Below are positions 46,916 through 47,620 of a stretch of DNA of 59,753 nt, piece after piece (the stretch's first letter is position 1; each line of letters begins with the position of its first letter). Source of the DNA: a virus. The position numbers were made by a program, and so were the translations under genes. The stretch is taken from UHGV virus genome UHGV-0209512; one strand, 5' to 3'. Below the pieces are notes generated by a model. The model searched no databases and was not told the DNA's origin. It saw nothing but the letters and a program-made list of their open reading frames with translations.

Positions 46916-47620
46916 ATGTCTGACATGACTCTTTTACCTACTAATCTCGGTGGCGACGGTTTCGGCGGTGAAGCTGGTGCGGCTGGTATCGGTGGTGCGA
47001 TCGGTGGTTTGATTGGTTCCTGGATCGGTAACGGTTGGGGTGGCAATGGTTGGGGTGGTCGCGGTAACTTCGCTGGTCCGGTGGAAGTGCAAGCTTCTGT
47101 TGACACCAACGCAATTCTGCAAGCTATCAACAACGGTACTCTTCAGACCATTCAGGGGCAGAACGGTACTAACCTGACTGTTGAGCGCTCCGCCGCTTCT
47201 ACCTATAACGGTATCACTCAGCAGAACACTCAGAACATGCTGGCTTCCGTTCAGGGCTTTGCCGGTCTGAACACTCAGATTCAGGGTAGCACCAGCCAAG
47301 TGCTCGCGGCTCTGTGTAGCAACGAAGCAGCTAACATCACCCGTTCTTTCCAAGCACAGTTAGAAGCTCAGAAATGTTGCTGCGAAACAAACCTGAACAT
47401 CGAGCGTCAAGCTGAAGCTACCCGTGCGCTAATCCGTGACCAGCACGCACAGGCGCAAGCTGTTCTAATCTGTGACCTGAAGTCCCAGTTGCAGGAAGCT
47501 CGCTTTGCGAACTCTCAGTTGGCGCAGACGGCTGGTCTTACATGTAAGATCAATCAGGTTGCGCAGTTAGTTGACTTTAAACTGCCAACTCCTCCAACTC
47601 CTCCGACTGGCTGCTGCTAA
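46916..47620 (+). CDS. Glycine-rich protein with Cys-containing C-terminus (234 aa); candidate fiber-associated adhesin or other
   Basis: ORF 46787..47620 trimmed to ATG 46916; N-terminal GGDGFGGEAGAAGIGGAIGGLIGSWIGNGWGGNGWGGRGNF, Gln/Asn/Thr-rich middle, KCCCE and terminal TGCC. Confidence 0.5.
   Translation: MSDMTLLPTNLGGDGFGGEAGAAGIGGAIGGLIGSWIGNGWGGNGWGGRGNFAGPVEVQASVDTNAILQAINNGTLQTIQGQNGTNLTVERSAASTYNGITQQNTQNMLASVQGFAGLNTQIQGSTSQVLAALCSNEAANITRSFQAQLEAQKCCCETNLNIERQAEATRALIRDQHAQAQAVLICDLKSQLQEARFANSQLAQTAGLTCKINQVAQLVDFKLPTPPTPPTGCC

Follow-up and report, generated by a model that had tools for sequence, protein, structure and literature searches.

A glycine-zipper protein encoded behind the lateral tail fibre gene of a Seuratvirus is probably a membrane-targeting helical rod rather than a tail-fibre adhesin

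What does a glycine- and cysteine-rich protein do when its gene lies directly behind a lateral tail fibre gene? We analyzed this question in the genome UHGV-0209512 (59,753 nucleotides, the whole of which is called the window below), a Seuratvirus (Queuovirinae) genome in which the 7-kb region around the gene, here named g1, was 91-96% identical to Seuratvirus records; annotated relatives carry the 7-deazaguanine genes typical of the Seuratvirus group. The g1 coding sequence (46916-47620, + strand; 234 amino acids (aa)) is followed by three further genes, g2, g3 and g4. An earlier note on this DNA had proposed that the protein could be a glycine-rich adhesin bound to the fibre tip or, alternatively, a glycine-zipper membrane-active protein. 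Our analysis points to the second proposal: g1 is probably a membrane-targeting helical rod rather than a tail-fibre adhesin, and we tentatively read it as a very abundant, membrane-inserting, Cys-locked helical oligomer that would act on the host envelope late in infection.

One feature behind this reading is found near the N-terminus. After the conserved motif MSDMTLLP (aa 1-8; 46916-46939, +), identified in the alignments of homologues, aa 12-53 (46949-47074, +) contain a glycine zipper, in which G26, G30, G34, G38 and G42 form a five-fold GxxxG run, and then the Gly/Trp block that had already been noticed (GNGWGGNGWGGRGNF, aa 39-53). In g1 itself this region is weakly hydrophobic, the best 19-residue segment having a Hessa-scale insertion energy of about +4.5 kcal/mol. 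Of 189 full-length family members, 12 have an N-terminal segment below 2 kcal/mol on this scale, and distant homologues from IMG/VR and from metagenome-bin contigs carry a strongly hydrophobic transmembrane helix at the position of the g1 zipper, for example MLILLFLIILMG and WWIIILFLFVFMG, and likewise GGMLILLFLIILMGGNGGF and AWWIVILFLFCFMGW. The GxxxG run, together with the transmembrane helices found there in distant homologues, supports the glycine-zipper membrane-active proposal as far as sequence can.

The remainder of the protein is predicted to form a rod. Its middle part, as described before, is rich in Gln, Asn and Thr, and also in Ala (composition of the whole protein: G 30, A 29, Q 25, T 20, N 19, C 8), is helical, and shows a hydrophobic periodicity of 3.6-3.65 residues over aa 60-150. 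The structure prediction that the earlier note had called for gave, with AlphaFold2, an all-helical monomer with helices at aa 65-92 and 102-222, but its low confidence (predicted local distance difference test (pLDDT) 55.7) made the model unfit for a fold search. Three groups of cysteines follow. The CCC triplet C154-C156 (47375-47383, +), which is part of the KCCCE sequence reported previously (aa 153-157; 47372-47386), was present in 180 of the 189 members, and C186, in a LICDLK motif (47471-47473, +), was a cysteine in 152 of them. The last group extends from C210 through a Pro/Thr linker to the terminal GCC (47543-47617, +), the protein ending in TGCC as noted earlier. C210 was found only where the C-terminal Cys tail was present: both occurred in 84 of the full-length members, neither in 90, the tail alone in 15, and C210 alone in none. 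This co-occurrence points to a shared disulfide or metal site, with the caveat that the members are phylogenetically related and the counts are not independent. The Cys-rich end, which had been judged unusual, is rather a hallmark of the family and no accident.

We next consider whether the gene and its start are correctly defined. The protein matched phrog_9288, a family without known function, over its full length (423 bits) and had 168 close homologues; together with the strong translational selection described below, this shows that g1 is a real gene, beyond chance. Longer in-frame starts are available at TTG 46787 and ATG 46841. Since all g1 homologues start at the conserved MSDMTLLP, and since a promoter-like box and a hairpin occupy the stretch upstream of ATG 46916, this ATG, which had also been chosen before, is the right start. 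It is preceded by a ribosome-binding site (GGAG, 46904-46907), and the stop codon is TAA (47618-47620).

The expression signals of g1 point to a very abundant protein. Codon adaptation was calculated as an optimal-codon score per gene, in which amino-acid composition was corrected using the window-wide codon frequencies. The z score of g1 (+6.8) was the second in the window, next to that of the major capsid protein (+7.1), and was followed by those of a putative single-strand DNA-binding protein (PHROG match; +5.8) and of the tail tube (+3.8), while the lateral fibre gene (43427-46744) had the lowest value of all (-5.9). Translational selection on g1 is thus as strong as that on the major capsid protein. 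A second highly expressed gene coding for a protein whose function is not known was found in the window (7-810, - strand; 267 aa; phrog_11298; z = +5.0).

At the transcriptional level, g1 is separated from the fibre gene by a clean intrinsic terminator (46762-46786, +; -14.1 kcal/mol, z = -3.5) composed of an 8-bp GC-rich stem (46762-46781) with a UUCG loop and a T-run, in agreement with the earlier description. A promoter-like element was then inferred at 46830-46857 (+), where TTGTAA and TATGCT are separated by a 16-nucleotide (nt) spacer. It matches the consensus at 8 of 12 positions and was not reported by the consensus scan; only its -10-like box is kept in other phages, as TATACT, CATACT, TATTCT or TAGAAT. 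The hairpin GTAACC-AGTT-GGTTAC (46865-46880, +; -7.3 kcal/mol) is located 7-8 nt 3' of this box and about 35 nt 5' of the g1 ATG. We compared the region 46852-46880 of the window with that of 11 other diverse phages (L003, L008, L010, L021, L025, L029, L030, L034, L035, L037 and L041). The pairing was kept in 12 of 12 phages, with 100% of the cells paired versus 22-63% in slid controls, through stem variants of 5-6 bp (GTAAC...GTTAC, GTAGC...GCTAC and GTGGC...GCCAC). Two of the five pairs were changed on both sides, from A-U to G-C, and this covariation was matched by none of 500 shuffles. The element could be either a 5'-terminal mRNA hairpin, stabilising the messenger, or an operator; hairpins at the 5' end of a transcript are known to stabilise mRNAs in E. 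coli. Another GTAAC...GTTAC hairpin (5443-5459) was located inside a coding region and was dropped as a chance occurrence.

Downstream of g1, a stable terminator-like hairpin was detected (47642-47679, +; 10-bp stem at 47642-47675; -16.3 kcal/mol, z = -2.5), and the annotation of a relative also places a terminator after g1. As the U-tract is short and only about 12 nt separate the hairpin from the start of g2, it is probably a partial, leaky terminator. Such leakiness should favour the expression of g1 over that of g2-g4. By analogy, this layout may resemble that of operons yielding one major subunit and less of a helper protein.

The genes downstream of g1 were its most constant companions. 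The g2 gene (47692-48060, +) encodes a protein with poly-His and poly-Asp tracts at its N-terminus, followed by a small helical domain with an EXXE-X15-EXXD (MazG-like) motif, as identified from the sequence and by profile searches; its relatives carry poly-Asp/Glu plus poly-His tracts, and scores against Pfam and NCBIfam were weak, MazG-like or PRA-PH-like (E = 0.009 and 0.055). These His-rich tracts may provide a metal link to the Cys clusters of g1. The g3 product (48076-48606, +) was modelled by AlphaFold2 as a beta-rich core of unassigned fold, predicted with confidence (pLDDT about 90 over aa 20-130), with an acidic disordered tail. No annotated relative of g2 or g3 was found among PDB sequences. 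The last conserved member, g4 (48593-48877, +), defined by locus comparison, is a small helical protein. In the IMG/VR loci with a close or moderately related g1, g2 and g4 were directly downstream in 32 of 32 cases, and the order g1-g2-g3-g4 was intact in 30, g3 being missing in L035 and frameshifted in L036. The same order was observed in Sashavirus, Tlsvirus, PY100-like Yersinia myoviruses, the Edwardsiella phage eiAU and a 41-kb metagenomic phage. In some of these phages, g1 shares only about 30% identity with the window protein.

The upstream neighbour, on the other hand, varies. In Queuovirinae, the gene before g1 encodes a lateral fibre with an S74 domain, and so it does in Drexlerviridae-like phages, even where the J-like tip gene is on the other strand; overall, about half of the examined loci have g1 next to a lateral fibre gene. 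In L016 and L038, the open reading frames (ORFs) before g1 are putative capsid genes, judged from size and position only. The operon of Sasha is next to the terminase block, that of PY100 is isolated among early-type genes, with about 25 kb between it and the tail fibre genes, and that of L013 is far from any fibre gene. As the upstream neighbour varies and g2-g4 are constant, the stable unit is the operon and not a pair formed by the fibre gene and g1. Locus comparison thus shows g1 as the head of a mobile four-gene operon that appears to have been passed among unrelated virulent phages.

Conservation of g1 is also uncoupled from that of the fibre and the capsid. In many Seuratviruses, similarity to the window sets in only at the final 100-150 nt of the fibre gene; g1 to g4 are then 94-96% identical, and the fibre genes of these phages are unrelated to that of the window at the DNA level. 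Over aa 55-234, the Salmonella phages Sasha and Segz_1 have a g1 with 82-86% identity; the values for a Hafnia phage and for the Nonagvirus JenK1 are about 81%, and those for Tempevirinae about 69%. Taken together, most of the g1 length is shared at 69-86% identity by Salmonella, Hafnia and Klebsiella phages whose backbones are unrelated. For the capsid protein of the window, a single match fell in the range of 80-90% identity and 713 stayed below 60%; outside the genus, its identity drops below 60%. Judged by identity, g1 is far better conserved than either the fibre or the capsid protein. Conservation across hosts and fibres is the opposite of what is expected of a host-range determinant, which should vary with both, and it also speaks against docking onto one particular virion.

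The fibre gene of the window (43427-46744, +) encodes a phage_tail_N domain and a C-terminal Peptidase_S74 intramolecular-chaperone domain (aa 980-1031). Its central part is not common to most Seuratviruses, which, with its z score of -5.9, is consistent with a recent acquisition by recombination. Between the J-like tip gene and the fibre gene lies a 321-aa gene (42366-43331, -; phrog_1265, "membrane protein", moron category; codon z = -3.1); this site is occupied by a 77-aa lipoprotein gene in some Seuratviruses and by the same 321-aa gene in others (e.g., SA80RD and VogelGryff).

How widespread is this protein? In a 30-sequence alignment of close homologues (A1), the N-terminal MSDMTLLP was almost invariant and was followed by the glycine zipper and then by the motifs VQGFAGLNT, CCC, ATRxLI and LICDLK and the tail FKLPTPPTPP(GCC). 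A profile search with A1 among 1.84 billion cluster representatives found 129 clusters. When a homologue from a gut phage was used as the query, at least 7997 significant matches were obtained, and the g1 family profile matched 120 of 120 among the matches listed for this query (E = 1e-21 to 1e-8). By these matches, the g1 superfamily comprises at least about 8000 sequence clusters. Distant members retain the N-terminal motif, the zipper, one to several QGFxGLN-type repeats, the CCC triplet and LCDxK, and the plan of the superfamily can be described as an N-terminal motif, a membrane segment, a long amphipathic all-alpha rod with QGFxGLN-type repeats, CCC, a further cysteine and a C-terminal Cys tail. 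The CCC triplet is duplicated in one distant branch, and some distant homologues carry two CCC motifs with C-terminal Cys clusters such as SCCGCGA.

Among the 185,579 species genomes of bacteria and archaea that were scanned, only 3 relatives of g1 were detected, each on a metagenome-bin contig (9-59 kb). This near absence suggests that the family is restricted to phages that seldom, if ever, reside in their hosts as prophages. In gut-phage contigs of 92-128 kb, the g1 homologue ends the tail-gene block, just before oppositely oriented replication genes, and one of these contigs (L060) contains in-frame stop codons, suggesting stop-codon recoding. Behind the g1 homologue of these large, AT-rich gut phages comes a paired-Cys protein of 139-145 aa (L057 8698-9135, L060 10844-11263 and L062 10863-11282) that resembles, by eye, trimeric head domains of the BclA/ExsFA type; the next product is a g2-like helical protein, after which L057 and L060 have an HExxH protein of 104-107 aa.

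The operon is repeatedly damaged in cultured phages. Seurat (L011) is devoid of g1 and g2, its fibre ORF continuing in frame into the end of g3; in SHIN8 (L007), the fibre N-terminus is joined to the last 72 aa of g1; in KurtStettler (L002), an S74-containing ORF is fused in frame to g1 at about aa 19-20; and VogelGryff (L004) matches g1 only through aa 181 and has no g2-g4. The g1 copy of the T5-like phage polluks is frameshifted, and the metagenomic protein cluster P0121 is a g1-g3 fusion. The archetype TLS has lost g1-g3 by a deletion running from the -10-like box into g4, an unannotated remnant of which is kept between ssb and gp55 (L065 31761-32060). From these genotypes, g1 is shown to be dispensable in culture. 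Almost every metagenome-derived contig examined had an intact operon. In cultured phages, the place where the fibre gene meets the cassette (43427-48606) is a deletion hot spot, and 3 of 3 fibre-to-g1 or fibre-to-g3 junctions examined were in frame.

These observations can be assembled into a mechanism, which we put forward tentatively. The g1 protein would be the major product of the operon, taken as a late accessory module. The zipper of g1 would insert into, or bind, the host membrane, and the protein would oligomerise into an elongated helical rod locked by its Cys clusters, through a disulfide knot or a shared metal site. It would then act late on the host envelope and not on the virion, either as an accessory to lysis and release or as a block to further infection. 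The g2-g4 products may be helpers made at a lower level, among which g3 may shield the hydrophobic N-terminus of g1. Several points weigh against this scheme. The zipper of g1 is, by its predicted insertion energy, too weakly hydrophobic for a standard Sec-inserted or classical transmembrane helix. The flank on its N-terminal side is acidic, K+R being higher on the C-terminal side (1.0 versus 0.3); by the positive-inside rule, this bias would place the Cys-rich rod in the reducing cytoplasm, which clashes with a disulfide. Some homologues come from phages of anaerobic gut hosts that are possibly Gram-positive, in which periplasmic disulfide chemistry is doubtful. The helical model, as mentioned above, is of low confidence. 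Finally, capsid-level expression is unusual for lysis or exclusion proteins and more typical of structural ones, and the phage already has a full lysis cassette.

A broader form of this scheme, which we regard as doubtful, is that g1 founds a new and very widespread class of phage envelope-remodelling proteins made at capsid levels and distinct from holins, spanins and disruptins. In such proteins, an anchor (a transmembrane segment or a glycine zipper resembling a fusion peptide) would be combined with a long helical rod and a CCC knot, and their effect would be to disrupt host membranes, to fuse them or to close them to other phages. The proteins would work with the His-rich, MazG-like g2 and two other proteins, including g3 with no recognisable fold, and would be kept in nature from enterobacterial siphoviruses to recoded gut phages of 90-130 kb while being quickly lost in laboratory culture.

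Known phage and viral systems were compared with g1. Searches of Pfam, NCBIfam and PHROGs with g1 and 43 family members gave no annotated relative; the alignment taken to the PDB, Pfam and PHROGs was the wider A2, of 43 sequences. The i-spanin Rz (lambda-type, PF03245/phrog_89) is, like g1, a late phage protein; in Rz a membrane segment at the N-terminus leads into a long alpha-helical domain bearing conserved cysteines, a layout that g1 may share, and the Pro-rich end of g1 is reminiscent of Rz1, the partner of Rz. In L059, moreover, the distant g1 homologue directly follows two ORFs that, by eye, look like an M15-type peptidase and a holin with two transmembrane segments, which recalls a spanin setting. 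However, unlike Rz, g1 has far higher expression signals and a weakly hydrophobic N-terminal segment; the rod and the cysteines of the i-spanin topology are present, the segment is at about +4.5 kcal/mol in g1 but a real transmembrane helix in distant homologues, and the charge bias argues for the opposite topology. No match of the g1 family to phrog_89 or PF03245 was found, profile-profile alignment of g1 with the Rz-like protein of the window (hhalign) gave a probability of 0.2%, and a six-frame lipobox scan of 46700-49200 for an o-spanin lipoprotein partner found nothing credible in or beside g1. Membership of g1 among the i-spanins was thus rejected, as there is no Rz homology and no o-spanin partner and the phage has its own spanin elsewhere. 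A role as the holin, endolysin or spanin of the window was likewise discarded, the phage having its own set at 22877-24356 (endolysin 22877-23518, holin 23522-23899 and Rz-like spanin 23880-24356). L013 and TLS-type phages also possess canonical spanins and lysis genes.

Against the PDB, the best hits of the g1 family profile were all influenza HA2, aligned along helix A and the fusion peptide before it (E about 1.5e-3). The class I viral fusion proteins share with g1 a Gly/aromatic hydrophobic segment followed by a polar helical rod and then cysteines, but g1 has no C-terminal anchor. H1 HA2 scored 19.0 bits versus 17.7 bits for the best block shuffle, and the 13.4 bits of H3 HA2 were equalled in 9 of 2000 shuffles. 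By the block shuffle test, the HA2 score is mostly compositional, and we take the resemblance to class I fusion proteins as one of architecture rather than as homology. Glycine-zipper membrane proteins (Gly-zipper_Omp, PF13488) have in common with g1 the five-fold GxxxG, with small residues at i and i+4 over seven turns, but PF13488 was touched by only 2 of 43 g1 members with E = 0.04 or worse, far below threshold, and the other architecture is unrelated. The phiX174 H pilot protein combines an N-terminal Gly-rich membrane segment with a Q/N/T-rich, oligomerising helical rod, which is an analogy only: the g1 profile showed no similarity to an H sequence.

The main alternative, although unlikely, is that g1 is an abundant virion component, either a decoration protein or a trimeric, non-essential fibre of the head or tail, which its cysteines would cross-link after release. 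A codon adaptation equal to that of the capsid protein fits this explanation, as do the long helical rod with a variable number of repeats, Cys clusters suited to extracellular life and a dispensability typical of decoration proteins. The gene is, in addition, oriented as the late genes, has a fibre gene immediately before it in Queuovirinae, Drexlerviridae-like loci, eiAU and a T5-like phage, and follows the putative capsid genes of L016 and L038, assigned from size and position. However, the genuine hydrophobic transmembrane helix of distant homologues speaks against it, and a specific docking site is hard to reconcile with a g1 that remains 69-86% identical where capsid proteins are below 60% or undetectably related and with a family found in siphoviruses and a myovirus alike. 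The operon is also outside the structural module in PY100 and Sasha, and no annotation of a relative names g1 as structural. Virion proteomics for any g1-carrying phage were not found in the literature, and the publications on 9g, eiAU, Vid5, aquatic coliphages, TLS and BASEL gave no data on the g1 protein.

It is less likely still that g1 is a soluble cytoplasmic protein, either binding metal through thiolates or self-assembling as a scaffold, in concert with the His-rich g2; its Gly/aromatic head and helical rod would then recall an intermediate-filament-like or condensate-forming protein. The absence of a signal peptide, the acidic N-flank and the weak hydrophobicity would agree with such a protein, CCC and the further cysteines together with the poly-His of g2 suggest metal handling, and a high abundance would also fit; a periodicity of about 3.65 residues would suit straight helical bundles. 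True transmembrane helices in distant homologues argue against it, and no match to any metal-binding family was obtained.

A third explanation, which we consider improbable, is purely analogical: g1 might be freed at lysis and act from outside on neighbouring cells or envelope debris, as a colicin-like, receptor-masking or outer-membrane-perturbing factor helping infection of hosts with an intact O-antigen. The abundance of g1 and an extracellular Cys chemistry would be compatible with this, and the Gly/Trp/Asn block followed by a helical rod may resemble the translocation and receptor-binding domains of colicins. Furthermore, g1 was lost together with lateral fibres in laboratory phages grown on K-12, a strain that has no O-antigen. 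No toxin or binding domain was detected in g1, however, and the homologues with a transmembrane helix would remain in the membranes of the producer cell.

That g1 is an assembly chaperone or scaffold of the lateral tail fibre, as the label of bas22_0024 would have it, is very improbable. The gene stands beside the fibre gene in many loci and was co-deleted with distal fibre parts in Seurat and SHIN8, and BASEL names the KurtStettler (Bas22) ORF (L002 5020-6552) "putative lateral tail fiber chaperone". This ORF is, however, a fusion in which S74 is in the N-terminal part and g1 was joined by deletion; the window fibre has its own S74 domain, no S74 or Tfa domain is found in g1, and the cassette is far from fibre genes in PY100, Sasha and L013. 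A 78 kDa virion protein of TLS was assigned by its authors to the lateral fibre Gp55 (PMC11447400), and the presence of this band in virions of a phage without g1-g3 speaks, indirectly, against a role as fibre chaperone. The BASEL label thus looks unfounded, its source being the S74 ORF fused to g1. The same holds for the label "putative sugar-binding protein" given to the Bas08 homologue (L008 3809-4519), which may derive from a remote hit of the haemagglutinin type.

Lastly, a gp38-like, glycine-rich adhesin or host-range determinant at the fibre tip, the main idea of the earlier note, is hardly tenable: it is favoured by the Gly-rich block and by a position next to the lateral fibre in about half of the loci, mainly in Queuovirinae and Drexlerviridae-like phages, but g1 is near-identical in phages of different host genera and highly conserved while the fibre varies, is partnered with g2-g4 and not with the fibre, has no Pfam, NCBIfam or annotated PHROG match, and shows expression signals far beyond the stoichiometry of a fibre tip. 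T-even gp38 adhesins and tail-fibre assembly proteins do share with g1 a glycine-rich stretch and a gene located after the fibre gene; unlike gp38, g1 is conserved and not hypervariable, is tied to g2-g4, shows no homology to it, and carries its Gly block at the N-terminus, ahead of a helical rod.

Beyond the operon, a 67-aa Cys-rich ORF (48889-49092, +; phrog_25697) was seen here only in Seuratvirus relatives. It starts with MCGNTNRCC and ends with GAFFRIF, and its stretch QLAQAACNCK..PVAPTPV resembles the C-terminus of g1, SQLAQTAGLTCK..LPTPPTPP.

The g1 gene appears to be among the most strongly expressed genes of well-used coliphage groups, namely Seuratvirus, Nonagvirus, Tlsvirus and BASEL relatives, in which database labels for it are inconsistent ("hypothetical", "sugar-binding" or "fibre chaperone"). 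In phage metagenomes, large gut phages among them, its superfamily numbers thousands of proteins, none of which has been characterised. As the operon is intact in most of the metagenome contigs examined and repeatedly lost in culture, its function probably matters only on natural hosts or under natural conditions. Such a function escapes laboratory genetics and bears on phage therapy and on host-range engineering. Natural deletion variants (Seurat, TLS, SHIN8 and VogelGryff) and intact relatives (Bas23/24-type phages and CAjan) already exist, which makes this family directly testable.

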